This document shows, piece after piece, positions 5,280-57,239 of a DNA stretch of 64,000 nucleotides; the stretch's first letter is position 1, and every line of letters begins with the position of its first letter. A program made the translations under genes and the position numbers. Source of the stretch: Thermodesulfobacteriota bacterium (GTDB lineage: Bacteria > Desulfobacterota_D > UBA1144 > Nemesobacterales > Mycalebacteriaceae); the NCBI GenBank assembly GCA_965226585.1, contig OZ245366.1, positions 1,184,001 to 1,248,000 of the forward strand, in the 5' to 3' direction. Under the pieces are notes generated by a model, which worked only from the letters and a program-made list of their open reading frames with translations, was not told the origin of the DNA and made no database searches.

Positions 5280-5476
5280 CGTCATTCCGTTGCCCCTTTT
5301 CCCGTCATTCCTCTTTCCCCGTCCATTCCTCTTTCCCCGTCATTCCTGCGAAAGCAGGAATCCAGTATTAATTAACCAGTTGAATACTGGATTCCGTGTC
5401 AAGCACGGAATGACGGAATAGAGAAGTGTCATTCCTGCCCCTTCCGTCATTCCTGCGAAAGCAGGAATCCAGTATT
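5280..5476. repeat. CGTC-tagged palindromic repeat cluster: partial units, one 78-bp doublet (5338-5415) and a half unit (5445-5476)
   Basis: Doublet reads CGTCATTCCTGCGAAAGCAGGAATCCAGTATT-N13-AATACTGGATTCCGTGTCAAGCACGGAATGACG. The half unit overlaps the autotransporter stop codon. Confidence 0.95.
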
Positions 5477-8400
5477 AAAACCTGTAATTAACTCCGCCTC
5501 TGAACTGTTGCACAAAAGTATCAACCGAAGAACTCACTCCGCCGCCATATTCAAAACTCACATTAAACTTCTCATAAGGGCTGTATTCAAAACCCGCGCC
5601 GTAGGTGAACATCACCCTGTCCATTGTGCCGTCAACGGGAACATTATCCCTCTCAAGCCTTCCTTCAATCTCCGACTCTGGGTTAAGCACCTGTATATCC
5701 GCCCCTGTTCTTATCCACATGTTTATTGTCTCATTGAGAGGACTCCGCGCCTCTATTGACGGACTCACGTACACAAGCAACTCGCTTATCTCATCTACCC
5801 CAAAGGCATCCATCGCCGCGTCTGCCGCACCTGTTCCTGTTGTAAGCGAAGTCTCATTAAACTTATCCGCCGTTATTTGCGATGCGCCAACCGCTACGCG
5901 GGGGAAGAAAGCGAACTCTCCCATTAAGAACGGTCTTGCCGCGCCTATTTCACCGCCAAATACTGTTGCGTCCACATCCGCAGAGTAACTGTTGCCCGCC
6001 GTTCTGGTCGCTTCCCAACTCGTTGACCCATAACGCAGGTTGCCATCAAGAACAAACTCATCAACCAACGCCTCAGCGAATATACCGCCCATGAACCTTG
6101 TTGCGTCTCCGCTTGCTTTGCCCAGTCCTTTTGTGTCCGCCGCAGTCTCTGTTTCTGAACTCGCGTCTATATCCGATATCTCATATCCGCCCGCGATGGA
6201 AACAAGCACTCCGCTGAATGGCGCGGAAAAACCGCCGGTGAAGGAATAAACATCCTCGTTATATTGTATCGCCGATGTGTGCCTTGTGTATCTCCCGCCG
6301 GATGTTGCCCATACGCATCCAGTCCAGAAATCTCCGCCCACCTCATCACTCGCCGCTCCGCCGGTTCCGCATCCTCTTGCCAACTTGTCCGCAAAGTTTC
6401 TGTCTGAACGATAGGCGGACTGTATCAGCGCGTCATATACATCCAAACTTGTGTCTTTGTGCGATGTCGCTATTAAAAACAAATTGCCGTTTTCGTCTGT
6501 CTCAACACTTACCCTTTCGCCTGTCTCCGCATTCAGGCGGTCTACAAATTCCTGCCTTTCTTCGCCTTCGGGCAGGTCATCCGCTTCAAAAATTGTGTAT
6601 TCGTTTATGTGCGTTCCGGGGATATCAACCCTGACATTAAAGCCTTCAATATCTTCCGCGCTTATCGTACCTTCAAGGTTTATCAGCGGGTCGCCCGTCA
6701 TGCTTTCAGGGTCTGCCGTGATAACAAGGGTTGAATTTTCCCCAAAGGTTATTTTCTCCAGTCCCGCAAATCCGCCTGTGTCTTGAATTACGATTGTGCC
6801 ATTGTTTATGAAACGGTCATCGCCATCGCCGAAGTTTATGGTTGCGGTTGTGTCCTCAGGGGCAGGGTCTGCAGAAGAAAGGCGGAAACGGCTGTCGCCG
6901 CTTGCTGCCCCCTCCGTCACTCCTGCCACCTCCGTCATTCCCGCCCCTTCCGTCATTCCCGCCCCCTCCGTCATTCCTGCGGAAGCAGGAATCCAGTATT
7001 GATTAGCCAGTTGAATACTGGATTCCGTGTCAGGCACGGAATGACGGGAAGGCGAAGATTGCGCTCCCGATGAGAGAGGGAAACTCCCGGTTCCGCCTGA
7101 AGACGGCTCGTTTTCCGCATTCTCAAGCATGAAAGCGCCAACAAGGAATGTTCCCGTGCCTTCGGTCGCAACGGTGTCATCGCCTGCGCCCATATCAAGG
7201 TCGCCCGTAAGCGTGAATGTCCCGCCGTCTTTAACGGTAATTGAGTCATTACCGGCTCCGGTTGTTCCCCAGCCCGTGAAAGTTCCCTCGTTTATAAAAG
7301 TGTCGGCGTTGTCGGAAAGTTGTATTCTGCCCGTTATGCTGCCGGTAGGGTCGGTTGTTATCCTTGAGCCATGGGTCGGGGAATCAACACTCACGGCATA
7401 GCCAACCTCCGTGCAGACAGAACCCGAAAGTTCACCGCCGCACACAACCGCGCCTCCTCCTACCGTCAATTCCATTAATGCCGTTCCGTTTCTGAGAGAT
7501 ACCGCCGAACTTGTGCCGCCGTTAGCCCACACTTTTGCGCCGTGAATGTTTGCCGCTGTTGTCGCCTTCACTGTTGAACTTCCCGAAGCGTTAGACCAGA
7601 CCTGCCCCGTTCCGTCTCCTGATATGACCGTAATCCCTCCGCCGGCTTTCGCTGAAATTGCCGAACTTCCAGAAGCGTTAGACCAGACTTTTCCGTCATT
7701 TGAAACATTGACCGTTTCCGCCACTATCGTGTTGCTTGTCTTGCCTTCCCCAATTGTGTTGGCTGATGTTTCGCCTACCCACACTTTTGCACCGTCAATT
7801 TCAACCGTGCCGTTTGAGATAATCGCGGAGTCTGAGTTGAACGCCGACACATTTACGCCGCCCGATACGGTTATTGTTCGCCCGTTGATTGCCGCGAACC
7901 CGTTTTCCGTCTTGACACTTAACCCGTTGTCTTCTCCCGTGCCTCCGGTTACTGACAAGGCTCCACCCGCGCTTGACGCTTCAATGGCGACTGCGCCTCT
8001 TCCCGCCACCTTGATTGTTGAGTTGGCATCTCCGGTAACGATTACATCTCCGCTTATTGATGTTGCCAAAATGCCGATTCCGCCGTCACTGTCGGTTCCC
8101 CTTCCAATAATTACCCCTCTTGACATGGTGAGGGTAATGTCTCCTCTAACCGTGTTGGCTATAACTCCGGTTTTGCCGATTATGCAGGAAAGTCTGTTCG
8201 CAATTATTACATCTACCGTTCCGTCCTCTCCGGTTACCGCCGCCAGACCGTAGGAATCTCCCATGGATGAGGAGAAGATTACCGCCCCGTTTATCAGCGA
8301 GGTCGTCAGGTCGCCGCTTGAACTCGTGAGAGTGGCGGATTTAGAGTCCGAGGTTGAACTCCACCTGACATCTCCGGGAATGCTTCTGTAACTGACAATT

Positions 8401-9001
8401 CCCGCCTCAGAACTGGTAAAAGTTAAATCAATGTTTCCGGCGTCCGTTTCCGCCACAAGACTGTTCACACCGCCCGTCTGCCGCGAATCCATTTTGCTGT
8501 ACCCGCTGAAATTTATGGCTATGCTTCCGCCCGTGCTTTTCGCTACAATTCCGTTGCCTCCGCCGGTTCCGTTAAGCCTGATACGCGAACTGCCCGTAAT
8601 CTCCATGACCAAATCGCCGCCGCCCGACACATCAATAATATTCCCGCCGGACCCTTTGGTAACGGCGTCCACATCGCCCATAAAAAAGGAAACATTGCGC
8701 GCCGCGCCAACTGTTATGGCGGGGTCTCCGTCTCCCGTTGTTGTTATATTCACTCCCATCGCGTTAAAAGCGGCATCCGTTCCGACCGCCTGAGCGTTGA
8801 CTGTAATTCCGGCTCCTGATGAAGTTTCTATGTCTCCGCCGCCCGTAAGAGCTAATGTTGCGTCTCCGGTTGCCGGAGAGCAGTTAAGAGCGGCTGTGGC
8901 TGAAGTTGTTAAGTTGCCGCAATCTGTTTGTGCATAAGCGGGCGGCGCGGCAAGCGTGAGTAAGAGAGAAAGCAGAATAAGGGGGGGGTGGCTTTAGACA
9001 T
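5475..9001 (-). CDS. Autotransporter adhesin-like protein AT1, frameshifted at a C8 tract in the signal peptide (phase-off, pseudogene or sequencing error)
   Basis: C-terminal barrel ends GGVNYRF. The ORF 5475-8759 stays open upstream to the G8 run at 8981-8988. One extra C joins it to ATG 9001 (GGAG upstream), giving MSKATPPLILLSLLLTLAAPPAYA/QTDCG, which matches the AT4 N-terminus (SHA/QTDCG). Confidence 0.88.
6914..7046. repeat. Repeat doublet (6969-7046) plus three 18-bp tandem units, inserted in frame in AT1
   Basis: Translates on the - strand as RHSVPDTESSIQLANQYWIPASAGMTEGAGMTEGAGMTEVAGVT with no stop codon. Confidence 0.95.
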
Positions 9002-9030
9002 TTTAGGTGCTCCAAACTTTATTAAAGTGT

Positions 9031-9060
9031 AGTCTATGGACAAAAATGGGGTTAGGTCAA
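9031..9060 (-). promoter_or_regulatory. Putative sigma70 promoter of AT1
   Basis: TTGACC-18 bp-TAGACT on the - strand, 30 bp upstream of ATG 9001. Confidence 0.45.
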
Positions 9061-9064
9061 GTTC

Positions 9065-9142
9065 CGTCATTCCGTGCCTGACACGGAATCCAGTATTCAA
9101 CTGGTTAACTAATACTGGATTCCCGCTTCCGCAGGAATGACG
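9065..9142. repeat. Single 78-bp doublet in inverted orientation, between divergent AT1 and AT2
   Basis: CGTCATTCCGTGCCTGACACGGAATCCAGTATT...AATACTGGATTCCCGCTTCCGCAGGAATGACG is the reverse complement of the majority orientation. Confidence 0.95.
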
Positions 9143-9247: not shown

Positions 9248-12200
9248 GTGGTCTTAAAAATCCAAAAGGCTCTCTTCACCGCTTTAACCGCGATTCTGCT
9301 CATCTCGGCAATTTCGCCCTTCCCCGCCTACGCCCAAGACTGCACAACCGTATCCTCAGTGAACTCATCAACATCCTGCACTTCAGCAACAAGCGACATC
9401 ACCGTAACCATGCAGGGCGCGATTATCACCCTTAAACCCCCCGACAGAGACGGAATAACCACAGAAACCGGCGGAAGCGGAACCATTACCGCAACCTTTA
9501 GCGAAGAAGGCAGAATCGCCTCCCGCCTGCACGACGGCGGAAACGGATTCAGAGCAACAACAGACGCCGGTAATATCACCGTATCCGTTGACGCCAGAAA
9601 CGCGGGAATCTTTATGTACCTCCCGCGTGAACAAAACAACTTCAGAGACAACAAAGGCGCGACACTCACAAGCGCGACAGGCGATATCTCCGTCTCTGTG
9701 ACCAACACATCCGCAATCCTCGCCTCCGCCGTGGGAGACTCCTACGGTCTGGCGGCGGAAACAACCGGAGCCGAAGGAACCGTCAACATTGTGCTGAGAA
9801 ATGACAATGCCTGCATTGTCGGCAGAAATGGCGTTATCGCCAATACAGTCGGCGGCGGAACCAACCTTCTGCTCTCACACTCCCTTATTGTCGGCACGGG
9901 GGCGGACGGAAAGGCGTTTGCGGCAAAATCAACCGGGGCGGGCGGCATATCAGCCACAATCGCCAACGAATCATCAGTCAAAGCGCGCAAAAGAAATTCG
10001 GCGGCGTTTGTCGCGTCATCGGCGGGCGGAGATGTGTCTCTCGTCATCACAAACTCGGCGGGAGTGGGAACTAACAGAACCGGCTCGTCAGCGGTCAACG
10101 TAAGCGCGGGCGGGTCGGGGAAAATAGTGATTGATGTAACAGGAAACGGAGGCATAAACGGCTCTAACATAATCGCGCGCGGCTCAGGCTCAACGGCGGT
10201 GGACGCAAATACGCAAACCGGAGCAATTTTCTTCAATGTTGTTGACACCAACTCCATCGTTGAAAGCGAAGGCGGTGAAAACGCCGTCTCTCTCACCAGC
10301 GAAAGCGGAGACATAAACATAAAAGTCAGCGGCGGCACGGTTGAAGGCGGCGCGTCCACAAAAAGCGTCATAAAAGCGGTTACGGGCGGCGGCGGAGCCA
10401 TAACCGCCCTGTTTGAAGGGGCTTCAAACATAAGAACAAAACCGGAAACTGTGGACGCATGGGCGGTTGACCTTTCAACCGAAAGCGGAGATTTAATGGT
10501 TCAGGTCGCCAACGGTTTTACCTTCCGGACGGAAAAAGGTGTTCGCGCCGTTTCGGATTCCGGCGATGTTACGGTGAACGGATACAGCGGATACTCCCCT
10601 GCGGGCGGATACGCCTATGTCTCAAGCAATTCAGGCACGGCATCTTTCGTAACGAACGCGCAATTCAGCCATTTTTTCAACGTATTAGGCGCGACGGCGG
10701 TTACCGCCAACACGGTTGACGGCAACGCGAGTGTGATGATTGTCGGCACGCCTTCCAGCCCGTATCTTCCCGATGCCGTGGACGCGAGGTTTATTGTCGC
10801 CACCGCAACCGGCAAGGGAAACGTGTCGGTTGAGTATGACCCCGGAAACCCCGGCGCGTCCATAACTCTCGGACATAACGCGGTCGCGGTCGCAACAAGC
10901 GCGGACAGCGGCAACACATCCATCAAATTCGGGTCGTCAAGGGTAACCACCTTAGCCAAACAGAATCAGAAAGTTATTGACGCAACTTCGGGAACGGGCG
11001 ACATAAACCTTGAATTTGAAGGCTCGTCCGCCTCTCTCGGAACCTCATCGGGAACGCGGCTTGCCGATGTAACATCCACAGGCGGCGACATAGCCGTAAC
11101 TGTCAGCCAAACACCGTCTTCTTCGGGGCTGAACTTCGCGGGCGGCAGGGGGCTTTCGCTCTCAACCGGCGGAACGGGCAACATAACGGCGGTATTTACG
11201 TCTGCTCTGCTCTACACCGGCTCTTCAGCCGTGGACGCGAGTTCGGTGGACGGCAACATAATCGTTTCAGTTGCAAGCGCGTCAACTTTGGAAACACGGG
11301 GCGCGGGCGGCGAGGCGGTGAAGGCGGCAACACAAACCGGAGATATTTTCTTTAATGTTACAGACGCGCTTTCCACTGTCATAAGCCTTGCGGGAACAAA
11401 CGCAGTTTCTCTCGCCAGCGCAAGCGGAAACATCAGCATTGAGGTAAAAGGCGGCGGAGATGTGAGGGGCGGCGCAACAACAGACAGCGTTATAAGAGCG
11501 AGCACGGGCGGAAACGGAACCATAACCGCCCTTCTTGACTCAGCCGCCTCAAACATACAAACGCCGTCAGGAACAGACGCCTACGCCCTCAACCTTTCAA
11601 GCGAAAGCGGGAACATATCCGTTAAGTTTGCCAACGGTTTCCAGACAAGGACGGTAAAAGGCGCGCACGCCGTTTCGGATTCCGGCGATGTTACGGTGAG
11701 CGGAGGCGGTTTCTTCGCCGTTGCGGGCGCGAGCAGATACGCCTATATTTCAAGTAATTCAGGCACGGCGTCTTTCGTGCCGGACTCAACTTTCAGTCAG
11801 GTTTATGAAGCTGTCGGAGCCACCTTTATTGAAGCCAACACGGTTGACGGCAACGCGAATGTGTCAATTTCGGGCATATCTTTCGGTATTGATATCGTTT
11901 CCGCGGGCGGAAGGGCGTTTGTCGCCTCCGCAACCGGCAGGGGAAACGTATCAGTCGCCTTCACGCCCGCCAATCCGTCCTATTCCTCCAAGTTAGACCT
12001 TGGGCATAACGCAGTCGGAGTTGAAACAGTTGCGGACAGCGGCAGCACAAACATAACGATTAGCGTGCCCTTTATACAACTTTCAGGCGAGAATGAACAC
12101 AACCAGAAGATTGTTTCCGCGACTTCGGGAACGGGAAATATAAGTGTTGTGTTTGAGCGCGTCAGCGCGGCTTTTGGAGGCTCAACAGGAACCCGGCTCG

Positions 12201-15200
12201 CGGATATAACATCTGCGGGCGGCAACATATCCGTGCTTGTTGACAGAACAAGTTTCCTTAACAGAGGAATGAACTTCGCGGGCGGCAGAGGGCTTTCGCT
12301 CTCAACCGGCGGAACCGGCAACATAGCGGCGAATTTCCTTTCAACCAGCGTTTTCACAAGCGAGGAAGCCGTGAACGCAACTTCAGTGGACGGCGACATA
12401 ATCGTTTCTCTTGCAGATATGGCGCGGCTGGAAACGCGGGGCGCGGGCTACTCTGCGGTGAACGCGACTTCAGTGGGCGGCAACATAACCGTTTCTCTTG
12501 CAAATCTGGCGCGGCTGGAAACGTGGGGCGCGGGAAACCCTGCGGTGAACGCAACCGTTTCGGGCGCGGGAAACATAGTTATTGATGTAAAAGGAGTGGG
12601 CGGAAGAAACGGCTCAAATATAACCGCTTTGGGCGCGGGCGCGGAGGCGGTTAAGGCGGAAACGGCAAGCGGAGACATATTTTTCAATGTTCTTAACAGA
12701 GACTCTTTTGTTAAAAGCGCGGGCGGAACAAAAGCGGTGTCTCTCACCAGCGCGGGCGGAAACATCAGCATTGAGCTCAAAGGGTCGAGAGCCAAAATTG
12801 AAGGCGGAACGGAAGCGGACAGCATTGTAAGGGCGCACACGACCGGAAGCGGAGCCATAACCGCAGTTATTGACGGGTCGCTGTCAACCATAAGAACGCC
12901 GACCGATACTGTGAACGCTTACGCTCTTAACCTCTCAACCGAAAGCGGAAACATATCCGTTACAACCTCAGGCGGGTTTCAATACAGAACTCTCAAAGGT
13001 ATCTACGCCGTTTCAGATTCAGGCGATATTACGGTGCACGACACTCCGGCATTCCCCTCCAAAGGCGGACACATCTATCTTTCAAGCAATTCAGGCGCGG
13101 CATCTTTTGTGGCGGGCGGAACCGGTTTTTTCAGCCCTGAACTGAGCGGCGAAGGCAGTGTGGGAGCCGCGATTATTGAAGTCAACACGGTCAGCGGCAA
13201 CGCTAACGTGTCAATTGCGAACATAACTTCCAGTATAGGCGCGGCATCGGCGGACGGGAGGGCGATTGTCGCCTCCGCAACCGGCACGGGAAACATAAAC
13301 GTTGTGTACAGACCCAACTTCGGCGCCGCGTTAAGGCTGGGACATAACGCGGTGGGCGTTTTAACGGTCGCAGACAGCGGCGACACAAGCATAGAATTGT
13401 CGCCCACCCAGATAATTGGCAGTCCGCAAACGCAAAACCAGAGGGTTATTTCCGCAACTTCGGGAGCGGGAGACATACGAATTGTGTTTGACCGCGCATC
13501 CATTGATTTGGCGGCAAACCCGGGAGCGCACCTCGCCGATATAACATCCGCAAGCGGCGACATAAACTTCTTTCTCGCGAACGGAAGCGGGGCTATAGGC
13601 GGAGCGAATTTCGCTCGGGGCAGAGGGCTTGTGCTGAAAACCGGCGGAACCGGAAGCATAACCGCGAATTTCGCGCCCGCTTTTGTTATGGCGCGCGAAA
13701 CGGCGGCGGAGGCGAAAACAGACGCGGGCAAACTGATTTTTGAGATAAGTTCCAGACTCACATCCACGGGAGACAACGTGGAAACGGTTTCAATGAAAAC
13801 CGGTTCGGGAACCGCCTTTGTCAACGCGGCTTCGGGAACAAACATTCTGGCAACCGGCTCAAGCGGCTCAACCGCTCTCGCGGTGGAAACGGGAACGGGA
13901 ACGATTACCGCAAACGTTTTACCGGGCGCGCGCATAGAATCGGTCGGCGCGGCTGAAAACGCCGTTTCACTTATAAGCGGAGGCGGAAGCGTCCTGCTTC
14001 TGATTAAGTCCGGCTATGCGGTAAGTGAAGACGACACCTCAAGCACTCCGGTTCCAAACGGCATTGTGTCAACGGGCGACAATGCTAACACGGTCGCCAT
14101 ATCATCGCAATCCGGCAGTGTATCCGTTAGAACCTTGAAGGCGGAAGGCGCCGAACACGGCGCGTATGTCAGGGCTTCGGGAACCGGCTCAAGGGCGTTC
14201 TCGGTTTCAACCGGCTCAAGCGGCGGAACATCAATTTATATGAGAGAGGAAGCCACCGTGCGGGCTTTCGGACGCGACTCCACAGTGCTTTCGGCAAATA
14301 CTGACGCGGGCCTGCTGATTCTCCAGTTTGACGACGCGGATGCGCGCGCGCGCGGAGAGAACGCGCACATTGTGGAAGCGCAAACAAACAGCGGAACTAT
14401 GTCAATCCAGTTCAAAGACACAAATATTGAGACCACAGACGGAGACGCTGTTGTGTTCAGCAGTAATTATGACATTGAGAAGGATGACAATATTGAGAGG
14501 AATGCGATGACCGGGAAGAAGGATAAGAAGCCGACGAATATTAACGGGGTTCTGGCAATTGACATTCTTAACGGCGCGGCAATTAAGGCGGGAGGAGACG
14601 ACCGGAACGCGGTAAGAGTGTCAACAGTCAGCGGAAGTGTGCAGGTTTCCCTTTACTTAGGCGTTGCAGGCGCAGTAAGCCCCCCGTCTCTCAGGTCTAC
14701 GGGAAAAAACGGTCACGCCATTGCCGTCTCAAGCAACAGCGGAGACTTGAGAGTATCATCCACGGCGCCGCAGGGAAGGTTTGAGGGGGATGAAACGGAT
14801 GTTCTCATGAACACAATCAGCGGCGACATAATATTTACTATGGTGGACCCGCAAGGATTCGGCCAGAACGGATTCCTTCGCGCGGTTACCAATTCGGGAG
14901 ATATATCCGTTAGGACCGTCAACGCAAGTCCTTTTCCGAGTCAGCCGGACTCGGTGGCATACGACCTAATCGCGACCACCGGTAATGTGTCCGCAAATAT
15001 CATCCGGGGCGGCGGGGTAACGGGAGATGACAGAGGAATCTACGTCAACGCCTCAACCGTGTCGGGAGAGATATCCCTCACGTTTGATGACGGAGACCCT
15101 CCCAGCACCGTTGTTAGAACATCATCCATTCGGGTGGGAGGGCACGGGGGATCAACGGATGAATCCGCCATAGCGACAAGCACGTCTTCCGGCGATACAA

Positions 15201-37761: not shown

Positions 37762-37821
37762 TAAGGGTTCCCTAGAGGCGTTTAGGCATTCATACATCTA
37801 CCGTGAGGGGTTAATCTTGGA

Positions 37822-45409: not shown

Positions 45410-46240
45410 GGGCAGAATGACACTTCTCTATTCCGTCATTCCGTGCTTGACACGGAATCCAGTATTCAACCGGTTAAGTAATACTGGATTCCTGCTTTCG
45501 CAGGAATGACGGAAGGGCAGAATGACACTTCTCTATTCCGTCATTCCGTGCTTGACACGGAATCCAGTATTCAACTGGTTAAGTAATACTGGATTCCTGC
45601 TTTCGCAGGAATGACGGAAGGGCAGGAATGACACTTCTCTATTCCGTCATTCCGTGCTTGACACGGAATCCAGTATTCAACTGGTTAAGAAATACTGGAT
45701 TCCTGCTTTCGCAGGAATGACGGGAGGGGGCAGAATGACTCTTCTCTATTCCGTCATTCCGTGCTTGACACGGAATCCAGTATTCAACTGGTTAAGTAAT
45801 ACTGGATTCCTGCTTTCGCAGGAATGACGGAAGGGGGCAACGGAATGACGGAGAGAGGCAACAGAATGACACTTCTCTATTCCGTCATTCCGTGCTTGAC
45901 ACGGAATCCAGTATTCAACTGGTTAATTAATACTGGATTCCTGCTTTCGCAGGAATGACGGGAGGGGGCAGAATGACACTTCTCTATTCCGTCATTCCGT
46001 GCTTGACACGGAATCCAGTATTCAACCGGTTAAGTAATACTGGATTCCTGCTTTCGCAGGAATGACGGGAGGGGGCAACGGAATGACGGAGAGAGGCAAC
46101 AGAATGACACTTCTCTATTCCGTCATTCCGTGCTTGACACGGAATCCAGTATTCAACTGGTTAAGTAATACTGGATTCCTGCTTTCGCAGGAATGACGGG
46201 AGGGGGCAGAATGACGGAAGGGCAGAATGACGGGGATGGG
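45410..46240. repeat. Tandem array of seven inverted-orientation doublets (45434, 45539, 45645, 45752, 45883, 45990, 46121)
   Basis: Period 105-131 bp with linker GGAAGGGCAGAATGACACTTCTCTATTC. Confidence 0.96.
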
Positions 46241-47288: not shown

Positions 47289-48330
47289 TAACTCTGCCTC
47301 TGAACCCGTGCACGAAAGTCTCAAACGAAGAACTCGCGCTGCCGTCATATTCAAACCGCAGGTTCACCCTGCCGCCTTCATCGGCTACAAAATTCATTCC
47401 CAAGCCGTAGTCATACATTACGCGCTCAATTGTTCCGTTTGCTCTGAGAGAATCGCCTCCGGCGGCGGCTCCCTTCCAGCGGGTTTCAGGGTAGTAAGTG
47501 GAAAGTATCTGCGCCCCGGCTTTGCCGAAAAGATTCATGAAATCCGTTACGGGGTACTCAATGCCAAGCGAAGGGTTCAGGTATATCAAAAACTCACTCG
47601 TGTCTTCAAATGTAATGGCATTGTCCGCATCAGAACTTCCTTCCGCTTCCTCGCTGAAAGCGTCAACGGAAAGGTATGCCATTCCGATTTCAAAACGCGG
47701 GACCAAAACAAAGTCTCCCGCGAGAACGGGTTTTTCCACCCCGCCCGCGATTGACACGGTTCTCAAATCAGGCGATGCCGTGTAAGAGTCGCTTCCCGAT
47801 GCGCGGCGGGTGTCCATTTCGGTTTGCGCTATTTGAATACGCATATCCGCGTCCATAGTGTTCAGGATGTATCTTGTGCCTTGTATTCCGGCGATAAATC
47901 TGTCTGTTGTCAGCCCGGCTTTGTCGGCTTGTCCGACTGCTTCAGAGTCAAAGTTTGAGGATTCGTAGGAGATGCCGAAATCTATTTCCGCGAAAGAAAA
48001 TGGCGCGGAAACTCCGCCGGTGAATGAGTAGGCGTCTTCGTCGTATTCAAGCGAGGTGTTGTGGCGTGTGTATCTTGCGCCGGCTGAACCCCAGACGCAC
48101 AATCCGCCGCCCATAAAACCTGTTTCGTCTGTTTCTGTGTCAGCTCCGGCGAGACAGCCGGATTTAAGTCTGCTTCCGAAAGCGGAGTCAGCATAAAACC
48201 CTGATTGTATGAGAGGGTCATAGACAAGCAGTTCGCCGTCTTGAGTCTGAGCCGCCGAGTTATGGGCGGCGAACCCGATTACAAGCAAAAGAAGGGCGAT
48301 TATCGCGCCGTTTAGCCGAAAAGAAATCAT
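47275..48330 (-). CDS. Passenger-less autotransporter-type beta-barrel outer-membrane protein, most similar to the AT2 barrel
   Basis: Signal peptide MISFRLNGAIIALLLLVIGFAAHNSAA/Q then VYDPLIQSGFY. Shares ARYTRHNTSLEY, PDLRTV..GGVEKP and LSTYYPETRW with AT2. Ends GRVNVAF. Confidence 0.87.
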   Translation of the reverse strand: MISFRLNGAIIALLLLVIGFAAHNSAAQTQDGELLVYDPLIQSGFYADSAFGSRLKSGCLAGADTETDETGFMGGGLCVWGSAGARYTRHNTSLEYDEDAYSFTGGVSAPFSFAEIDFGISYESSNFDSEAVGQADKAGLTTDRFIAGIQGTRYILNTMDADMRIQIAQTEMDTRRASGSDSYTASPDLRTVSIAGGVEKPVLAGDFVLVPRFEIGMAYLSVDAFSEEAEGSSDADNAITFEDTSEFLIYLNPSLGIEYPVTDFMNLFGKAGAQILSTYYPETRWKGAAAGGDSLRANGTIERVMYDYGLGMNFVADEGGRVNLRFEYDGSASSSFETFVHGFRGRVNVAF

Positions 48331-48419: not shown

Positions 48420-48625
48420 CGCCATTCCGTTGCCTCCCTCCGTCATTCCGTTGCCTACCCTCCCTCATTCCGTTGCCTCCCTTCCGTCATTCCTGCGGAA
48501 GCAGGAATCCAGTATTGGTTAACCAGTTGAATACTGGATTCCGTGTCAAGCACGGAATGACGGAAGGGAGACAAGCGCGGAATGACGTGGGTGGCGTGTG
48601 TCAACAAGCACGGAATGACGGAATT
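48420..48625. repeat. Repeat cluster with CATTCCGTTGCC tandem units and one doublet (48485-48562)
   Basis: Read directly from the sequence. Confidence 0.93.
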
Positions 48626-48647: not shown

Positions 48648-51600
48648 CTAAAACGCCAGGTTTAGCCTTCCGGTGAAGGAGTGCACAAACGTTTTGAATG
48701 AAGAACTCATCCCGCCGTCATATTCAAAACTCGCGCTCACTGCTCCGGCGCCGTCAGATGAGAAATTAAACTCCATTCCGCCGCCGTAGGTGTGGGTGGA
48801 ACGCTCAAGGGTTCCGTCAACCTGTGTGGGGTCGTCTTTTATCTTTAACAGCGACTCATGCGTCTTGTTCAAAAGTATGTTGCTTCCGGCTTTTGCCCAC
48901 ACATCCACAAACTGCTGGGCGGGGTAGCGGAACTCTATTGACGGGGCGGTGAAGATAAACAACTTGTTCTCACCCTCAACGGCTATGCCGTCAAATCCGC
49001 TCTCTGTTATTGAATCCATCGCAACATGCGATAATCCCAACTCAAGGCGCGGAGTTATGTAAATCCCGCCCACTACTGACACTCTTTCAATTCCTGCGGT
49101 TGATGACAACGCCCTCAAACGGGGAGACGAAACGGCTTCCTGCTGAACACGGTTTGATTCCACATCGGAACGGCCTACCTGAATCCCAATATCAGCAATG
49201 AAAAGATTGGCTACCGGTCTTGACGCGCCAACTCCCACCATAAAACGCTCAACTTCCGCTTTCGTTTTTACATCAGCGCCTCTCACGCCTATGTCAAAGT
49301 TTGATGTCTCATATCCGCCCGCGATGGTAACTCCCGCAATGGCAAACGGTATGGATATTCCGCCCGAAAAAGTGAAAACATCTTCCTTGTATTCAAGCGT
49401 CCGCTTGTGGCTCACACTCCGCGAGCCGGTTGTCGCCCATGCGCATCCGCCGCCCGCCATCTCTTCAACTTCGCCCTCTGTTGAACCGCAACGCCCTCTC
49501 AGTTTTGACGCGAATGCCCTGTCTGTGTGCCACGCCGATTGTATGAACGCATCGTAAGGCAGTAAGTTTCCGCCCGCTCCGCCCGGAGAAGCCAGACGGC
49601 TGAAACGTATCAGCAGGTCAAAGTCTTCATTAAATCTTGCCGAACCGCCGACTTTTGCCATTATGTTTGCGACCCTTGCCAGAACACTGTCGCGATTGCC
49701 GGAAGACAGAGACGCGGTTGTGTAAAGCGTGTAGTCAAGTTCCGTTGAGGCGTTGCTTGTTCCCATTATTGTCAAACTTGTTGCCAAGTCATCCGGTGAA
49801 ACCGCCGCGCCGAGGTTAAAAATTGTCGCCGCGCCCGCCACGGTTACGCCTTCAGAGTCCGCCGCCGGTGTGAAGTCAACCGCCAGTATGCTTTGTCCTC
49901 TGAACAACGCTCTTTCAAGACCTGTAATTGTGTCATCCGCGCTGACTGTAAGCGTTCCGGTGGTTTCAAACGTGTCTGCGCCCGCGCCGAAGTCTATAAC
50001 TCCCGCTCCCGCAAGCGTCAGCCTGCCATCGTTGTTGAAGGTGTCTGCGCCCGTGCCCATTTCCACCGTTGCGCCGCCGGGGGCAAGTGTCAAAACTCTT
50101 GAGCCAAGATTGTTGAAGGTGTCGTCTCCGCCTTTCATATCCACAACGCCCGTGAAGGTTCCGGTGTTGTTGAAGATGTCGCCGCTGCCTCCCATGTATG
50201 TGTCTCCGTCTATTTCGCCGTCATTTTGTATCTCGCCCGCGCCCGTTCCGGTCATGTTCACGGCAAACCAGGCTCCACTGACAAACGTGCCCGCGCCAAT
50301 CTCAAGTGTCATATTTCCGCCGTCTGATTTGGCGTATATCCCGCGCGTTCCGCGCGGTGTTGCGCCGTTGCCCGAAACGCGGCTTCCTGAACCGCTTAAT
50401 GTAATTGCCACATCTCCGCCGTCAGATTCGGCATATATTCCGTATGCTCTCGCGTCGCCCCTCGACTCGCCCCGGGCAGTTACATTCGCGCCGTTTGCCA
50501 CCGTAACACTCACATCTCCGCCTGTTGCGGTTGATGCGTTGACGGTTGCCGCTTCCTGGCTTACCGTCCACACTTCCGTGCCGGAAAGAACAAGGTTTGT
50601 TTCCACTCTAATCGCGTCTGCGCCGGGGCTGTTTGACCACACTTTCACATTGCCGACTGTTGCCGTTCCGCCAGCCGGGGCGAAAACACTTGCCACTTTC
50701 GCGGCTGATTGGATTGTTCCGTGTGTCCAAATCTCTCCCGTTCCGTCTCCCGTGATTGTAATATCCGCCGTGCGGGGAGCCACTGATGAAATCCCGTATC
50801 TTCCTGAGCCGCCGATTCCGGAGGTGGAGGCGCCGGCATCAGACCGCACTTTTCCGCCGCCCGTAATGCTCACCGTATCCGCTTCAATGGTGTTGCTTGT
50901 TCTTCCACTGCTCCACACCAGCGAGCCGCCGCTGACGGTAACTGTGCCCGCTCTGACAGCTTTTCCGCCGGCAACGGATTGCGCAGACACGATTGCGCCA
51001 CTGTAAATATCTGCGGTTTGCGCGATGATTGCCACGCCTCTTGGACCTCTTGCAATCACTCTTGAGTCGTCAACCACTACCCTTCCGGTTGCGTTTATGG
51101 TTGTGCCGTCTCCCGAAGAATGGGAATCCTTCCGCACTGTTGAGTCGCCGGTAACGTTCACAGACGCCGCCGCGATAACGTTGGTTGAGAAACCTGCCGT
51201 TGAAACCGTAGAGGCGTCAACATTCACGTGCCCTGTTGCATAGACCGATATGACTCTATCGGTAGCACTGTTGGACAAGACATTTGACCCGTCCGTGATA
51301 TCTACATTTCTCGCGTTGACTGTTATTCCGCGGGTTCCGGTTGTCCACACATTTGACCCGCTGATACTCACACTTGAGGTAGTCGCGTGGATGGCTCTTT
51401 TAGATCCATCCCCGTCAGCCCACACATTTGAGCCGGTAACATTTACATTTGTGCCATACGACCATAACGCCCAACCGTCTCTCGCCCACACCTGCGAATC
51501 GGTTATGTCCACGCCTGCCGCCCAAACGGCTATACCTTCTGATTCAGTCCGCACATTTGAACTGGTTATATTCACGTGTGCTGTTCGTCCCCTTATTGCC

Positions 51601-54600
51601 GTTGACGAACCGGTTCCACCCTGTACCCAAACATTGGAACCGGTAACATTCACAACTTGCCCCGACCCCGCTTCCGCGTTAATTGCCGCGCTGGTGTCGC
51701 CTCTTGCCCACACTGTTGAGCCGTTGAAAACTTCTATCGTTCGCCCTCTGATTCCGTCTGACCGTGCCGCGTTCCCCAACACATTTGCCCCGCTGATGAT
51801 TACTCTTCCCGCTTCCGCAACAATGGCTCCGGTTTGAGATATGTTTGTCCACACATTCGCGCTGTTGTGCACTTCCACCGTTCCGGTGGATGTAAAGATT
51901 CCGTCCGCCGTGCCGCCGTCCGACCACACACTTGAGTCGTCAACAAACACACTTCCTCTGAACGATGTAATGGCGGCGTTTGCCCCGCCGTTTGCCCATA
52001 CCATTGCCTTGTTGAATATCCGCGCCGTTTGCGCGTCCACGCCGTTTCCTGCCGATTCCGTCCAAACTTGCGCTCCGTTCACGGTTGCCGTTCCGGTGGC
52101 AAAAACCGCGCTGCTTGCCGCGCCGTTAATCCACACTTTCGCCCCGCTCACTATTTCCGCCGTTCCCGCCGCAACCGCGTCCATATCCGGGCCGCTTCCC
52201 TGCGCCCAAACCTCTGTGCCTGTGCCGTTGACCACCGCCAGAACAGTCGCGACAATCGCCGAGCCGCCATTTTCAACCGCCCAAACTTTTGCGCCGTTAT
52301 AGACGCGAGTCGTGTCCGCCGTTATCGCGTTGGTTATCCCTAAGGTGTTAGTCCACACTTGCGCGCCGCCGTCCACTATTGCGGTTGCCGCCCGTATCGC
52401 GTCCGTTCCGTTGTGTGTCCACACTTGGGAAGAGGAGTTGATGAAAGCGGATTGCGCTATAACGGCTCTGCTTCCCGCGCCGTTTGACCATACTTTAGAA
52501 CTGCTTTCGGTTACCGTTTTAGTTCCGTTGATTGCTTCTCCGGTCTCGCCTTCCGCCCAAACTTCGGAGCCGGTAACGGTTGCCTCGCCTGAGGTAATGG
52601 CGATGCTGTTCTCGCCTTCCGCCCAAACTTTTGAGCCGCTCCGAACCACCGTTCCGGTAGAGTTGATTGAGTTGCTGTCTATGCTCTCCGTCCACACTTC
52701 GGAACTGTCAACGGTTACGACTGAATCGGCGGAAGTGGCGGAAATCGCGTTGCTTGTTGAGCCGTTTGCCCAAACCTTCGCGCCGTCTATAATTCTCACA
52801 TCAGCCGTAATAGCGGATGAAAAATCTCTCGCCCTGATTGATGATGAAGTGCCGCCTTCCGACCACACTTCCGAGTTTCTGACGGTTACAACCCGTCCGG
52901 TGATCGCGCTACTGCTTACGCCGTTCGCCCATACCTTTGCGCCATTGGTAACGGTAACTCCGAGGGAGGCGGTGGCCGGGATGGTATCCTGAATTGATAT
53001 GGAACTGCCGCCTTCCGTCCACACTTCCGCGCCGTTGACGATTATGTCATTTCCGGCGACCGCTCTGCTTCGGCTTCCGTTTGACCATACTTTCGCGCCG
53101 TTTTCAATAGTTGCTCTCTCGAAAACTACGACTGCGTTGGTGTCTGCGCCTAATGTCCACACATTTGAGCCGTTGACGATTACACCACTGCCGCCGCCCC
53201 CGGTAATGGCGCTGGCTCTTATCATGTTTGCCCACACATTTGAGCCGTTGTAGATTCCCGTGGTTCCTCTGCCGATTGCAAGCGCGGCGTAGCCCACAGC
53301 GTCTGTCCATATATCGGAGTTGTCAACGGTTGCCGTTTGCGCCCTCAAAGCCGTGCGGCTACTGCGGTTAGACCACACCTTGGATTCGTTGAAAATATCC
53401 ACATGGCTTGCTCTCGCGACTATTCCGTTCGCGTCTGTTCCTTCCGCCCACACCTGCGAGCCGTTGACGGTTACACTGCCCGCTCTGAATTCGGTTACAG
53501 TAATGGCTGAGCCGCCCGTGCCGTTAGCCCATACTTTCGCGTTGTTTTCAACATCCACACTCGCGCCGCTGATTAATCTGATTGCGTCACGGATTGCGCC
53601 TTCCCTCCACACTTCCGCGTTGTTGACTTTTACGGATGACGTGCTTCCGGTCGCGTAAAGAGCTTCGGATGAACTGCCGTTAGACCATACTTTCGCGCCG
53701 TTTTCTACGATTATCTCGCCGCCGTCTCTCGTATATACCGTCCAACCGCTGCCGCCGGTAGTCCATACCTCTGTGCCACTGCCGTTGACTCTTACATCAG
53801 AGCCGCCGCGTGTTTCAATTGCTGTGGCGGCGATAGTGTTAGCCCAAACTTTTGACCCGTTGTACACGCTCACCGAACCCCCGCCGAGTGAAAGGGCTGC
53901 ATAAGAGCCGGCCGCCGCCGACCAAACCTCTGTGCCCGTGCCGTCAACGGTTACGGTGCTTGAGTTAATGGTTACCGCGCTCGCGCCGTTAGACCAAACT
54001 TTTGACCCGCCGTACACACCCACACCCACAGAGCCTGAACTGCCGATTGTCTGAGAGGGCGCGCCCGCACCGCCGCCTTGCGTCCATACGTTTGACCCGC
54101 CGTTGATTGTTACGGTTGTAGCGTTAATGGCTTGCGATGATGTGCCGTTAGCCCATACCTCGGAACCGTTGACGTTCACCTGCCTGCCGAGAATACCGTT
54201 GCTTCTGACTCCGTTTGCCCCAACCTTTGAGCCGTTCACAACATTCACCGTGCTTCCGGTCGCGTCTATTGCTTTACCGAAACTGCCGTTAGACCACACT
54301 TGCGAGCCGTTGATATCTACCCTGCCTCCGCCGGAGATTGCGCTAATGGCTGAACTGCTCGTGCTGCCGTCAGACCACACTTTCGCGTTGTTTTCAACAT
54401 CCACACTCGCCCCGCTGATTGATGTGATTGCTCTACTGCTTCCGCCGCTCTGCCACACTTCCGCGTTGTTGACTTTTACGGATGAACCGCTTCCGGACGC
54501 ATAAATGGTGTCTACTGCGGAACTGCCGTTAGACCAAACTTTCGCTTCGTTTTCTACGAGTATTTCACCGCCAAGTGTAAGTATTGTTGTTGTTCCGCTG

Positions 54601-57239
54601 TCGCCTTCCGACCATACCTCTGTGCCAATGCCGTTGACGGTTACATCAGAGCCGCCGCTTGTTCGAATTGTTCTGCCGGAAGTGTTAGACCAAACTTTTG
54701 AGCCGCCGTACACATCCACCGAGCCTGAACTGCCGTCTGAAAAAATTGTCGTAGAGAGGCTGCCCACAGACCAAACCTCTGTGCCACTGCCGTTGACGGT
54801 TACGGTTCTGGCGTTAATGGTTCCCGAATCCGCGCCGTTAGACCAAACTTTTGACGCGCCATACACACCAACCGAGCCTGTAACTGCAATGATTGTGTTA
54901 GAAGTGCCGCCTTGCGTCCATACGTTTGACGCGCCGTTGATTGCTACGGTTGTACCACTAATGGCTTGTGATGATGTGCTGTTAGCCCATACCTCGGAAC
55001 CGTTGACGTTCACCTGACTGCCGAGAATACCGTTACTGCTGACCCCGTTCGCTCCAACCTTTGAGCCGTTCACAACATTCACTGTTGCCGTGCCCGTTGT
55101 TACAATGGCGTTACTGTTATCCCCTTCCGTCCACACCTGCGAACTGTTTATGTTCAAATGCGCGGTGGCGGCGGTTGTAACAATGGCGTTACTTGTCGCC
55201 CCGTTTGACCAAACCTTTGAGCCGTTGACCGTTGCGGAGTCTTTTGTAACGAACGCTATGGAATCGGTTCCGTTTGTCCATACTTCCGTTGAGTGATTTA
55301 TGCTGACATGTGTAAATCCTTCCGTTGACGCAACCGCCGCGTTTATGCCGATAGAGTTACCCCCGTCCGTCCACACCTTCGCGCCGTTCAGGTCTGCTAT
55401 CGCGTAAGTCAACTGGCTTGAGCCGTCAACATCTTTGGTTTCCAGTTTTATCGCCGTTGAGTTAGCACCCCTTGCCCCGATTTCGCCGCCGTTTTTCACA
55501 CCCAGCCCGGCAATGCCGCCGTCCGTTGCGGAAACAAGAGCCGATATGGAATTTTCGCCCGTAGTCTCAACCTTCGCGCCGCCAACCACATTCGCAACAC
55601 TTACCCCGTTGCTGAGCGCGCTGGTCGCGCTTTCGCCGAGAGAAGTGAGGTAGTCAGACAAAGATGTTCCGTTGGCAAGGGCGGTTGAAGAATGCCCGGG
55701 GTTGACGACAATCGTTCCGCTGTCATCAAAAGTGAAAAGAGGGTTTGCCTCCGCAAAAGTTTCAAGTTCTCCAATATCGCCCGCCGAAACCGCCGCCCCC
55801 GTTTCGTATCCGTCCACCACGCCAACCATTATTCCGGTTGAGTTGTGTCCCGTTGCCGTAACCCGTGAGGCATTTATATCCGCTCCGGCTGTTCCGCCCG
55901 TGTCTGAAAGCACAACAACGCCGTTTGAGTTGTCTCCGCCGGTTGTGATTCGTGTTCTGGCGTTTGATATGTTCGCGTACGCGCTTCCGCTTGCCGTGTC
56001 CGTCAAAATCTCAACCGCAGTTGATTCCGCGCCAATTGTCTGCACACTCGCGCCGTTGAGGTTCAGGATTACGGTTCCGTCCGGAACTCCGGTGTCGCCC
56101 GTTCCTCTTTTTCCGCTCACGCGGGTTGAAATCGCCACAGAATTTGAACCGTTTGTCCATACGTTTGTGTTGTTCAGATTGAGGGTTGTGCTTCCGCCGA
56201 ATTCGCTTTCCGCGTCAATCGCCGAAGAGTTTGCCTCAGCCGCCCAGACGTTTGAACTTACAGCGTTCACGACAGTATTTGATTGTGAAAGCGCGGTTGT
56301 GTTTATCGCCACCGATTTGCCAAGAGTATCGTTGCCGCCTTTGCGGGTGGACACATTTGAAACAAAGAGGTTAATGGCGGTGTTGACCGCTGAAGATGAG
56401 TTTGTTTCAATGGCGGAAGCCGAGCCGCCGTCTGCCCAGATGTTCGCGCTTACCGAGTTCACGGTAACGTTCAGTCCCGCTTCATAAGACGAAATGGTTG
56501 TCGCCTCTATTCCGTTTGCCCATATATCAGAGCCGCCTATGTTGACAATCGCGTTGCCGTCTCCGGTTGCGTCATCTCCCATGTCCACAGGGTCCGGCGG
56601 GTCCGGCGGCTCCACAGGTTCTTCCGGTTCGTCCGGGTCTAAGTCCGTTACTTCGTCCCCGTTGTCTGTGCCGGTAGATTGACTGCGTCCGTCATCCGAA
56701 CTTCCTCCGGGAATACCGAGAAGTTTGCTGACAATGGAGATGGTTTTCGCGCCGCCGGCTGATGCGTTGGAATAAATTATACTGCCGTTGCTTATGTTCA
56801 CAGATTCGGCGTAGATGGCTGTGGTTCCTTCGCTTCCGTTTGCCCAGGCCGCCGCGCCGTTGACGTTGACAAACGGGGCGTTAATGGCGGTTACGTAAGA
56901 TGCGTTTGCAAATACTTTTCCGGTAGTCAGAATTGACACGTTGCCGGAAATATCTATGGTTGTTGACGCGCCCGCCTCCGTTCCGTCCCCTTCAGTCCAT
57001 ATATCAGTTACTGTGCCGCCCTCGCCGCCTGTCAGGGGAATGCTTACTCCGCCAAGGTCTAATATTGAGTCGCCATCTTCCGTGGTGGTGGTGTCCGTTA
57101 TGGAGTCGCCTCCGGTGTAGTCAATTGCCGTTTGCGCGCGGGCGGTATCAAATCCCGCAAAGGGAACGGCAATTGAAAATGCCACTAAAAGAAAGATAAC
57201 AAGGGCGGAAAACGCCCCGCTTTTAAGTTTAGATTTCAA
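48648..57239 (-). CDS. Giant autotransporter adhesin-like protein AT6 (2863 aa)
   Basis: TTG start, signal peptide ...FDTARA/QTA, an acidic Pro-rich insert, dozens of VWxxG repeats, DMKGGDDTF/EMGTGADTF motifs, and a barrel ending GRLNLAF. Confidence 0.92.
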   Translation of the reverse strand: MKSKLKSGAFSALVIFLLVAFSIAVPFAGFDTARAQTAIDYTGGDSITDTTTTEDGDSILDLGGVSIPLTGGEGGTVTDIWTEGDGTEAGASTTIDISGNVSILTTGKVFANASYVTAINAPFVNVNGAAAWANGSEGTTAIYAESVNISNGSIIYSNASAGGAKTISIVSKLLGIPGGSSDDGRSQSTGTDNGDEVTDLDPDEPEEPVEPPDPPDPVDMGDDATGDGNAIVNIGGSDIWANGIEATTISSYEAGLNVTVNSVSANIWADGGSASAIETNSSSAVNTAINLFVSNVSTRKGGNDTLGKSVAINTTALSQSNTVVNAVSSNVWAAEANSSAIDAESEFGGSTTLNLNNTNVWTNGSNSVAISTRVSGKRGTGDTGVPDGTVILNLNGASVQTIGAESTAVEILTDTASGSAYANISNARTRITTGGDNSNGVVVLSDTGGTAGADINASRVTATGHNSTGIMVGVVDGYETGAAVSAGDIGELETFAEANPLFTFDDSGTIVVNPGHSSTALANGTSLSDYLTSLGESATSALSNGVSVANVVGGAKVETTGENSISALVSATDGGIAGLGVKNGGEIGARGANSTAIKLETKDVDGSSQLTYAIADLNGAKVWTDGGNSIGINAAVASTEGFTHVSINHSTEVWTNGTDSIAFVTKDSATVNGSKVWSNGATSNAIVTTAATAHLNINSSQVWTEGDNSNAIVTTGTATVNVVNGSKVGANGVSSNGILGSQVNVNGSEVWANSTSSQAISGTTVAINGASNVWTQGGTSNTIIAVTGSVGVYGASKVWSNGADSGTINARTVTVNGSGTEVWSVGSLSTTIFSDGSSGSVDVYGGSKVWSNTSGRTIRTSGGSDVTVNGIGTEVWSEGDSGTTTILTLGGEILVENEAKVWSNGSSAVDTIYASGSGSSVKVNNAEVWQSGGSSRAITSISGASVDVENNAKVWSDGSTSSSAISAISGGGRVDINGSQVWSNGSFGKAIDATGSTVNVVNGSKVGANGVRSNGILGRQVNVNGSEVWANGTSSQAINATTVTINGGSNVWTQGGGAGAPSQTIGSSGSVGVGVYGGSKVWSNGASAVTINSSTVTVDGTGTEVWSAAAGSYAALSLGGGSVSVYNGSKVWANTIAATAIETRGGSDVRVNGSGTEVWTTGGSGWTVYTRDGGEIIVENGAKVWSNGSSSEALYATGSTSSVKVNNAEVWREGAIRDAIRLISGASVDVENNAKVWANGTGGSAITVTEFRAGSVTVNGSQVWAEGTDANGIVARASHVDIFNESKVWSNRSSRTALRAQTATVDNSDIWTDAVGYAALAIGRGTTGIYNGSNVWANMIRASAITGGGGSGVIVNGSNVWTLGADTNAVVVFERATIENGAKVWSNGSRSRAVAGNDIIVNGAEVWTEGGSSISIQDTIPATASLGVTVTNGAKVWANGVSSSAITGRVVTVRNSEVWSEGGTSSSIRARDFSSAITADVRIIDGAKVWANGSTSNAISATSADSVVTVDSSEVWTESIDSNSINSTGTVVRSGSKVWAEGENSIAITSGEATVTGSEVWAEGETGEAINGTKTVTESSSKVWSNGAGSRAVIAQSAFINSSSQVWTHNGTDAIRAATAIVDGGAQVWTNTLGITNAITADTTRVYNGAKVWAVENGGSAIVATVLAVVNGTGTEVWAQGSGPDMDAVAAGTAEIVSGAKVWINGAASSAVFATGTATVNGAQVWTESAGNGVDAQTARIFNKAMVWANGGANAAITSFRGSVFVDDSSVWSDGGTADGIFTSTGTVEVHNSANVWTNISQTGAIVAEAGRVIISGANVLGNAARSDGIRGRTIEVFNGSTVWARGDTSAAINAEAGSGQVVNVTGSNVWVQGGTGSSTAIRGRTAHVNITSSNVRTESEGIAVWAAGVDITDSQVWARDGWALWSYGTNVNVTGSNVWADGDGSKRAIHATTSSVSISGSNVWTTGTRGITVNARNVDITDGSNVLSNSATDRVISVYATGHVNVDASTVSTAGFSTNVIAAASVNVTGDSTVRKDSHSSGDGTTINATGRVVVDDSRVIARGPRGVAIIAQTADIYSGAIVSAQSVAGGKAVRAGTVTVSGGSLVWSSGRTSNTIEADTVSITGGGKVRSDAGASTSGIGGSGRYGISSVAPRTADITITGDGTGEIWTHGTIQSAAKVASVFAPAGGTATVGNVKVWSNSPGADAIRVETNLVLSGTEVWTVSQEAATVNASTATGGDVSVTVANGANVTARGESRGDARAYGIYAESDGGDVAITLSGSGSRVSGNGATPRGTRGIYAKSDGGNMTLEIGAGTFVSGAWFAVNMTGTGAGEIQNDGEIDGDTYMGGSGDIFNNTGTFTGVVDMKGGDDTFNNLGSRVLTLAPGGATVEMGTGADTFNNDGRLTLAGAGVIDFGAGADTFETTGTLTVSADDTITGLERALFRGQSILAVDFTPAADSEGVTVAGAATIFNLGAAVSPDDLATSLTIMGTSNASTELDYTLYTTASLSSGNRDSVLARVANIMAKVGGSARFNEDFDLLIRFSRLASPGGAGGNLLPYDAFIQSAWHTDRAFASKLRGRCGSTEGEVEEMAGGGCAWATTGSRSVSHKRTLEYKEDVFTFSGGISIPFAIAGVTIAGGYETSNFDIGVRGADVKTKAEVERFMVGVGASRPVANLFIADIGIQVGRSDVESNRVQQEAVSSPRLRALSSTAGIERVSVVGGIYITPRLELGLSHVAMDSITESGFDGIAVEGENKLFIFTAPSIEFRYPAQQFVDVWAKAGSNILLNKTHESLLKIKDDPTQVDGTLERSTHTYGGGMEFNFSSDGAGAVSASFEYDGGMSSSFKTFVHSFTGRLNLAF

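Follow-up and report, generated by a model that had tools for sequence, protein, structure and literature searches.

The NIME/dRS3 arrays of Neisseria (Bentley et al. 2007, PMC1797815) consist of hairpin repeats lying beside genes for surface proteins; recombination between arrays is given as the cause of an inversion, the number of units varies, and that paper states that such arrays were unseen outside Neisseria. The Ssn/NTS/SRM system (Chenal et al. 2025, PMC11893778) couples a single-domain GIY-YIG nuclease with a repeat-gene-repeat layout and with repeats at membrane-protein genes; the nuclease SsnA cuts single-stranded DNA (ssDNA) a few bases 5′ of a hairpin and lowers the integration of transforming DNA. 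The CGTC-1 and CGTC-2 repetitive extragenic palindromes (REPs), described by Di Nocera et al. (2013, PMC3733652), carry a tag, a stem, a loop and a CCA tail, form heterodimers and occur in frame within genes, and their large arrays are reported mainly for Neisseria and Wolbachia. Among surface proteins, the chlamydial Pmp family (PMC6740158) comprises many paralogues in a small host-associated genome, where homopolymer frameshifts are read as phase variation. The stretch analysed here (the window) is 64,000 nt of the single 1,484,247-bp contig of a Thermodesulfobacteriota bacterium (genome G000, C1:1,184,001-1,248,000), in which eight paralogous genes, predicted from models to encode classical (type Va) autotransporters, lie between gltA and ssrA among arrays of CGTC-type hairpin dimers, together with a gene for a 96-aa Ssn-like nuclease.

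The analogy with Neisseria drawn in the original prediction is apt, the closer match being the NTS/Ssn system. An identity with dRS3/NIME is not found: exact dRS3 (ATTCCC-N8-GGGAAT) has 0 matches in the whole genome, and the repeats, being of NTS/CGTC type, work like a NIME without being one. NIME are mosaics of many RS spacers, whereas the units here are fixed 76-bp heterodimers, the genes that they flank belong to one paralogous family, and the ends of exchange tracts show no enrichment at repeats. In contrast to the Ssn/NTS system, arm A has a compensated stem pair that sets it apart from the NTS consensus, both arms miss the SRM pattern (0 matches of the published pattern in the island), 13 dimers lie in frame inside genes, and the nuclease activity is predicted from sequence. 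Unlike the CGTC REPs as described, those here gather at a single gene family of a genome of 1.48 Mb, and the Pmp proteins differ in that a W-containing passenger repeat, flanking hairpin repeats and inversions are found here; a Pfam scan of the array proteins matched no Pmp family. Within the open-licence literature (PMC11893778 without its supplements), no paper on this autotransporter family or lineage was found. Each ingredient is already known; what is added here is the inversion, the controls in congeners, the tract-end test with its negative result, and the G8/G9 state of one gene.

The reading favoured here, with a probability of about 60%, is that recombination and gene conversion between paralogues grew the family and that hairpin dimers at gene ends are crossover sites for gene-scale events, including an inversion. 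Homologous recombination of RecA type would be the engine of both growth and diversification (recA, comEC and dprA matches are present in the genome), the dimers would derive from an Ssn nuclease element, sit at gene ends and serve gene-scale crossovers, and the proteins would have an adhesive cell-surface role in a sponge host. For Neisseria, the long-standing idea that arrays of hairpins make nearby surface genes more variable is difficult to test, the genomes of that genus being scrambled; here the backbone is nearly collinear with that of congeners (930 orthologues), so that the gene-scale role of repeats can be separated from intragenic exchange. Five congeners (G001-G005) were compared, G003 serving as reference for the shared backbone, and gene names beyond those given by the Pfam scan come from reading the translations. 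One run with 0.65 of the sampled words is recorded as a sponge metagenome, and two with about 0.2 are recorded as cave metagenomes; the RNA run X7 has 0.05 of the words. Strains were compared over the first three genes of the array in contigs of runs X1, X3, X4 and X5 (of which the longest pieces are reported) and over a G8 tract in contigs of runs X1, X2, X4 and X6. NCBI labels the near-identical proteins of another assembly ‘MAG: Thermodesulfobacteriota bacterium’.

The array holds, as first described from the sequence, six large and two passenger-less genes with helix and barrel C-termini (in order AT1 to AT5, B6, B7 and AT8), whose last 330 residues are 29-97% identical in pairwise comparison. 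It is not a single island of its kind. A barrel profile run over the genome finds 29 open reading frames (ORFs) covering 149,391 bp, or 10.07% of the genome, plus one barrel fragment. These 29 paralogues occupy nine intervals of the backbone shared with the reference, the window array accounting for 8 of them; paralogues up to 98% identical lie at the eight sites outside it, and a second cluster of 57 kb has eight family genes and an identical nuclease copy. In a quick tree of the barrels, which was not used for the order of events, two tight recent groups extend across many sites.

As far as sequence searches reach, the family appears to be lineage-specific, or ‘private’. The family profile A2 matched none of 60 relatives, the five congeners included; a search of 1.84 billion representatives returned 21 hits, made up of G000 proteins, close alleles elsewhere and four remote proteins (27-37% identity); and B7, searched against a collection of species genomes, has no confirmed relative among 109 candidates. 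The congeners have 1-10 PF03797 matches each, of other families. For example, about 130 kb of G001 (C1:456,877-585,631) is taken up by tandem giant autotransporters of another family with identical C-termini and frames of up to 10,601 and 12,381 aa, at a backbone site where G000 also has one of its autotransporters; this cluster is adjoined by a pair of ORFs that we take to be Cas9-like. With 10% of 1.48 Mb of DNA devoted to one predicted surface-protein family, and with other autotransporter families independently expanded in congeners, this genus seems to be under strong selection for a variable surface. Two more very large barrel-ended genes of G000 (46738-56331 and 453061-462063) belong to other families and are common to the congeners, the first being ringed by repeat arrays.

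Two CGTC-tagged hairpins make up the repeat unit, a heterodimer of 74-78 bp that is present 133 times in the genome and 21 times in the island. It folds far better than shuffled sequences (z -7.5), and the CGTC tag, 8-bp stem, 4-5-nt loop, CCA tail and dimeric form of the CGTC-1/2 description (PMC3733652) are all found. The NTS consensus has 137 matches in G000 at up to 3 mismatches and 1 at 1 mismatch, and repeat matches number 281 in this genome against 0-31 in each congener. Full dimers lie between gltA and AT1 (1), in AT1 (1), between AT1 and AT2 (1), AT2 and AT3 (3), AT3 and AT4 (6, around the nuclease gene), AT4 and AT5 (1), AT5 and B6 (7), and B7 and AT8 (1), with 0 between B6 and B7 and between AT8 and ssrA. 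The count agrees with the original prediction, which saw doublets at every junction bar the overlapping barrel pair and the ssrA side, and their density in the island, 0.40 dimers/kb, is about fivefold that in the rest of the genome (0.078/kb), a result that counts in favour of that prediction. This density is not unique: four other 50-kb bins contain 29-47 repeat units, the main island bin 43, and 14 of the 30 bins none.

Repeats lie at the 3′ ends of family genes. Of the 29, 21 have one within 130 nt of the stop codon, as do 20 of the 930 backbone genes, and seven of the eight family genes that lack it run directly into the next paralogue. All nine autotransporter-bearing backbone intervals contain repeats, compared with 19 of 920 others, a difference for which the Fisher p of 5e-15 is overstated because the repeat copies are related. 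Thirteen genes, including AT1, have an in-frame dimer in their linker, some 1.5 kb upstream of the stop codon, where related alleles elsewhere have half a dimer or none; in six genes of three barrel classes, a half dimer (degenerate in one) is fused at the stop codon. In G004 (C44:8987-12870 and 27551-34270), two large barrel-type genes each lie within an inward-facing pair of CGTC repeats, like repeat-bounded cargo. Repeat clusters lacking family members lie at G000:294,000-317,000 and 672,000-682,500, beside genes that, judged by eye, resemble those for porins or glycosyltransferases.

The gene order of the five congeners is gltA, ptsP, fpr, rnb, pyrG, rdgB, ssrA, a short variable stretch and smpB, with ssrA on the gltA strand and, in G005, extra genes inside the ptsP-ssrA block. 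The adjacency of gltA and ptsP, kept in 5/5 congeners, is broken in G000, where the ptsP-ssrA block is reversed in a lineage-specific inversion and lies between eight autotransporters and a further three. The longest match in inverted orientation across the block, which is also the best, measures 230 bp at 88.7% identity and comprises the dimer, the promoter and the first codons of AT1 on one side and of the gene at G000:1250606 on the other; to judge from its sequence, this inverted pair is likely to be the crossover site. A crossover between 8924-9142 and G000:1250455-1250684 would flip about 57 kb. Before that event, AT1 would have stood alone between gltA and ptsP, and a ten-gene cluster, later split, between ssrA and smpB. 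The left junction is common to the three samples, in all of which gltA runs into the repeat flank. Metagenome matches of the fpr-like gene, at 80 loci, are all at most 57% identical and so yielded no conspecific gene order. Among the NCBI locus tags ACR2NQ_02585 to _02630 of another assembly, the AT8 allele and a short family member whose barrel is of the AT1 class are six tags apart; if these tags are ssrA-ptsP, the gene beside ptsP differs from that of G000.

A second derived rearrangement has split a nadK-like gene from fmt, its neighbour in 5/5 congeners. Repeats are found in all three of its new junction intervals, two of which have no autotransporter, and in 5/5 junction intervals of the two derived rearrangements of G000 taken together. 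Two others were left out of this breakpoint count, that at 56-63 kb because the congeners differ from one another there and no direction of change can be assigned, and the flip at 1309-1312 kb because G001 has the arrangement of G000. G002 has two inverted blocks with repeat variants peculiar to that genome on either side. The expectation that breakpoints map to repeats is upheld by the 5/5 junction intervals and fails for the ends of exchange tracts (8 of 94), and repeats are likely to help gene-scale rearrangement rather than intragenic exchange.

Exchange of sequence between paralogues does occur. There are 139 blocks (at least 250 nt, at least 88% identity) that join paralogues in changing combinations, and AT1 shares 758 nt at 99.7% identity with a gene of another barrel class located 740 kb away. 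Near-identical tracts (at least 200 nt, 96.5%) number 48, all but one in family genes; one clear case, shared by AT1 and 445149, ends at the linker repeat. In other assemblies, protein P0017 has a barrel of another class joined to the passenger known from the gene at 771678, P0035 combines parts of at least three paralogues, and P0013 is the AT8 allele with a stretch closer to the gene at 1359842. Run X5 differs from G000 by 3.5-4.3% in three AT2 pieces, 7% in an AT3 piece and 1.5-1.9% in two AT2 pieces, with 1.4% in gltA, and run X4 by 0.4-0.9% throughout. AT1-AT3 are present in all three samples, so that gene content is more stable than the ‘cassette-like’ surface-variation locus of the original prediction suggests; the surface variation itself holds, the alleles being mosaic between assemblies. 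The part of AT1 at window 7698-8945 has about twice the contig depth of gltA in runs X1 and X4 and has no second copy in G000.

Several observations weigh against repeat-driven exchange or limit the favoured reading. Tract ends fall within 30 bp of a repeat in 8 of 94 cases, against the 6.2% expected from the share of bases so placed, and are not enriched there, so that the repeats cannot be credited with seeding the exchange of gene parts. The 130-kb autotransporter cluster of G001 has no repeat match, which does not support a need for repeats in expansion. Together with the lowering of integration reported for SsnA (PMC11893778), these two results indicate that homology between paralogues likely does most of the shuffling. 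Neither a crossover itself nor a molecule in the un-inverted order was observed; the 9/9 and 5/5 associations cannot be counted as independent, since a duplicated gene takes its repeats along; half-dimer fusions at stop codons are not obviously explained by plain homologous recombination; and the chimeric proteins of other assemblies might have arisen by misassembly across the linker, which is conserved. Atlas leads for the passengers reach 0.83-0.84 only, and the passenger fold and the adhesion are predictions. A simpler inversion of 9 kb, involving ssrA-ptsP alone, is an alternative to the 57-kb model; its left end would be without repeats, and GC skew at fourfold sites did not separate the two models.

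A distinctly less probable account, although the best placed of the rivals, is that the repeats are passive, having been inserted behind one or a few early genes and copied with the duplicates as terminators or mRNA stabilisers at most, while homology of autotransporters and promoters drove rearrangement. The second rearrangement argues against it, since both of its autotransporter-free junction intervals have repeats, compared with 19/920, and so do the inverted blocks of G002 with their own repeat variants at the borders; in its favour are the tract ends that ignore repeats, the repeat-free G001 cluster of another family, the about 150 bp of promoter and coding homology that the 230-bp inverted pair also holds, and the 3′-end position of the repeats, which fits a transcript role (PMC3733652).

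The nuclease of the window matches Pfam GIY-YIG with 57.5 bits and is 56.5% identical over 96% to a 94-aa protein of N. gonorrhoeae that has 10 NTS matches within 1 kb and is taken to be SsnA; the catalytic residues Y6, Y17 and E64 of SsnA align to Y8, Y19 and E66, which are kept, and no solved structure was matched by the protein. An identical protein is encoded at G000:1333306, the two copies lying inside the two largest clusters. The gene is flanked on both sides by inward-facing repeat arms, and in G001 the same layout is found, with 13 of 14 repeat matches around two nuclease copies. Since the gene is located inside a dimer spacer, the dimers look like gene-less copies of the nuclease element. 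By analogy with SsnA, the nuclease most likely maintains the repeats and trims incoming repeat-bearing ssDNA rather than driving exchange. In G001 (C1:1,388,500-1,390,750), four tandem truncated 5′ copies lie between two Ssn-like genes.

It is unlikely that such a nuclease mobilises repeat-bounded cassettes by nicking ssDNA beside hairpins and inserting whole autotransporter genes as it would its own. The position of its gene in a dimer spacer in both G000 and G001, of its two identical copies inside the two largest clusters, and of repeats at 9/9 sites would suit this mechanism, as would the half dimers fused at stop codons in three barrel classes and the two repeat-bounded genes of G004. However, SsnA is shown only to cut and lowers integration (PMC11893778); it cuts 5′ of the hairpin, while the fused junctions are on the 3′ side; most G000 sites have no clean inward-facing pair; and G004 (60 contigs, 95% complete) has no nuclease match. 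Just as doubtful is the broader idea of a domesticated Ssn element as the mover that inserts autotransporter genes and flips blocks, in which case the 57-kb segment may still invert. If true, it would be the first Ssn/NTS system to act as a cargo-carrying mobile element, having built a tenth of a symbiont genome. As the organism is uncultured, direct tests are limited, but in vitro assays of the nuclease and the variant hairpins are feasible.

A horizontally acquired genomic island integrated at ssrA, suggested by the absence of the interval from the five congeners, its border with ssrA and the remoteness of family relatives elsewhere (27-37%), is largely refuted, because the array lies on the 5′ side of ssrA with no duplicated ssrA end at the far border, an integrase is absent nearby (two tyrosine recombinase matches are 120 kb and 560 kb off), the GC content is 53.9% against 51.6%, and paralogues up to 98% identical occupy eight other sites. 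An array created by misassembly of repeats is the least credible of all: the stretch is repeat-rich and no run contig spans the whole of it, yet the passengers differ from one another in sequence, AT1-AT3 are matched in pieces of up to 6.2 kb by contigs from independent runs, and in a second assembly the alleles of AT8, B7 and B6 have consecutive locus tags and a contig of one length.

Besides mosaic alleles, the array shows a difference in the state of AT1, whose signal peptide is out of frame at a tract of eight Gs. A 104-nt contig of run X1 has the same G8, and a 105-nt contig of run X4 that covers this span carries an additional G (G9), which is in frame. Slipped-strand mispairing might thereby switch AT1 on and off; with two samples in one state each, the data describe a polymorphism and not a switching rate. 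The last gene of the right-hand trio has a similar break, a T8 run (G000:1258160-1258261) that leaves its signal peptide out of frame. The tracts of chlamydial PmpG (PMC6740158) resemble the G8/G9 tract of AT1.

The whole-protein Pfam scan gave no autotransporter match for any of the eight array genes, and a six-frame search with PF03797 placed 15 family members above the cut-off, three of the eight in the window (AT5, B7 and AT8) among them; TIGR01414 matched 5 of 30 alignment rows. For B7, a fold from the single sequence reached a pLDDT of 36, and a model based on the 30-row alignment, with a pLDDT of 86.9, was used instead; it has one long helix and twelve long strands. Foldseek with this model gave EstA as best match (E 7e-16, TM 0.74), then NalP, AaaA, AIDA-I and EspP, and a profile match to EstA has an E of 4e-4. 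Helix, 12-strand barrel and terminal Phe are shared with EstA (3kvn) and NalP (1uyn) at TM-scores of 0.69-0.74; unlike these, to which identity is 14-16%, the family has passengers of up to about 3,400 aa without Pfam match and two members with none. In the translations, read by eye, an N-terminal signal peptide and a terminal aromatic residue are present, with AT1 out of frame in the former. The passengers are rich in G, S, T, A and N, carry repeated xW..G motifs (up to 53 per gene) and are likely to form a beta-helix; the proteins may act as adhesins. A low-complexity linker before the barrel has a conserved GDSRFRLSS-like motif at window 6880-6900 and at the same place in most paralogues, possibly a processing site. 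Features of the window are listed in Table 1.

Table 1. Genes, repeat arrays and other features of the window (numbered from its first nucleotide).
Feature	Position	Strand	Remarks
gltA	3864..5156	-	left backbone gene; Pfam Citrate_synt; adjoins ptsP in 5/5 congeners, not in G000
Repeat array	5283..5476	+	one dimer (5339); the AT1 stop codon carries a fused half dimer
AT1 autotransporter	5475..9001	-	natural start ATG 9001; frameshift at G8; open frame 5475-8759 (1094 aa)
Repeat dimer in AT1	6970..7045	+	read in frame, AT1 linker
Dimer, promoter and AT1 5′ end	8924..9142	-	88.7% identical, inverted, to G000:1250455-1250684; putative crossover site
G8 tract	8981..8988	+	in AT1 signal-peptide codons; AT1 signal peptide out of frame
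AT2 autotransporter	9248..17704	+	2818 aa
Array of three dimers	17754..18140	+	between AT2 and AT3
AT3 autotransporter	18142..25005	-	2287 aa; barrel 97% identical to that of AT1
Array of six dimers and partial arms	25095..26496	+	encloses the nuclease gene
Ssn-like single-domain GIY-YIG nuclease	25374..25664	+	96 aa; in the spacer between two arms of a dimer
AT4 autotransporter	26497..37797	-	3766 aa; likely start 37761; internal passenger duplications
One dimer and partial arms	37886..38090	+	between AT4 and AT5
AT5 autotransporter	38151..45269	-	2372 aa; most divergent barrel; above Pfam PF03797 cut-off
Array of seven dimers	45400..46235	-	between AT5 and B6
B6	46245..47288	-	signal peptide, helix and barrel, passenger absent; 347 aa
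B7	47275..48330	-	signal peptide, helix and barrel, passenger absent; 351 aa; modelled 12-strand barrel
One dimer and partial arms	48420..48625	+	between B7 and AT8
AT8 autotransporter	48648..57239	-	2863 aa; above Pfam PF03797 cut-off
ssrA	57417..57766	+	heads the block ssrA-rdgB-pyrG-rnb-fpr-ptsP, whose orientation is opposite to that in each of the five congeners
Two dimers	62060..62336	+	outside the island, between rnb and the ferredoxin-reductase-like gene

In the ORF list, the eight frames that fill 5475-57239 are 1094, 2818, 2287, 3766, 2372, 369, 362 and 2863 aa long. AT2 and AT3 are convergent, and B6 and B7, which overlap by 14 bp, are 95-99% identical in other assemblies. To the left of the array, a DegT-family aminotransferase gene (window 2653-3867) lies between trpF and gltA, a site at which the congeners have none.

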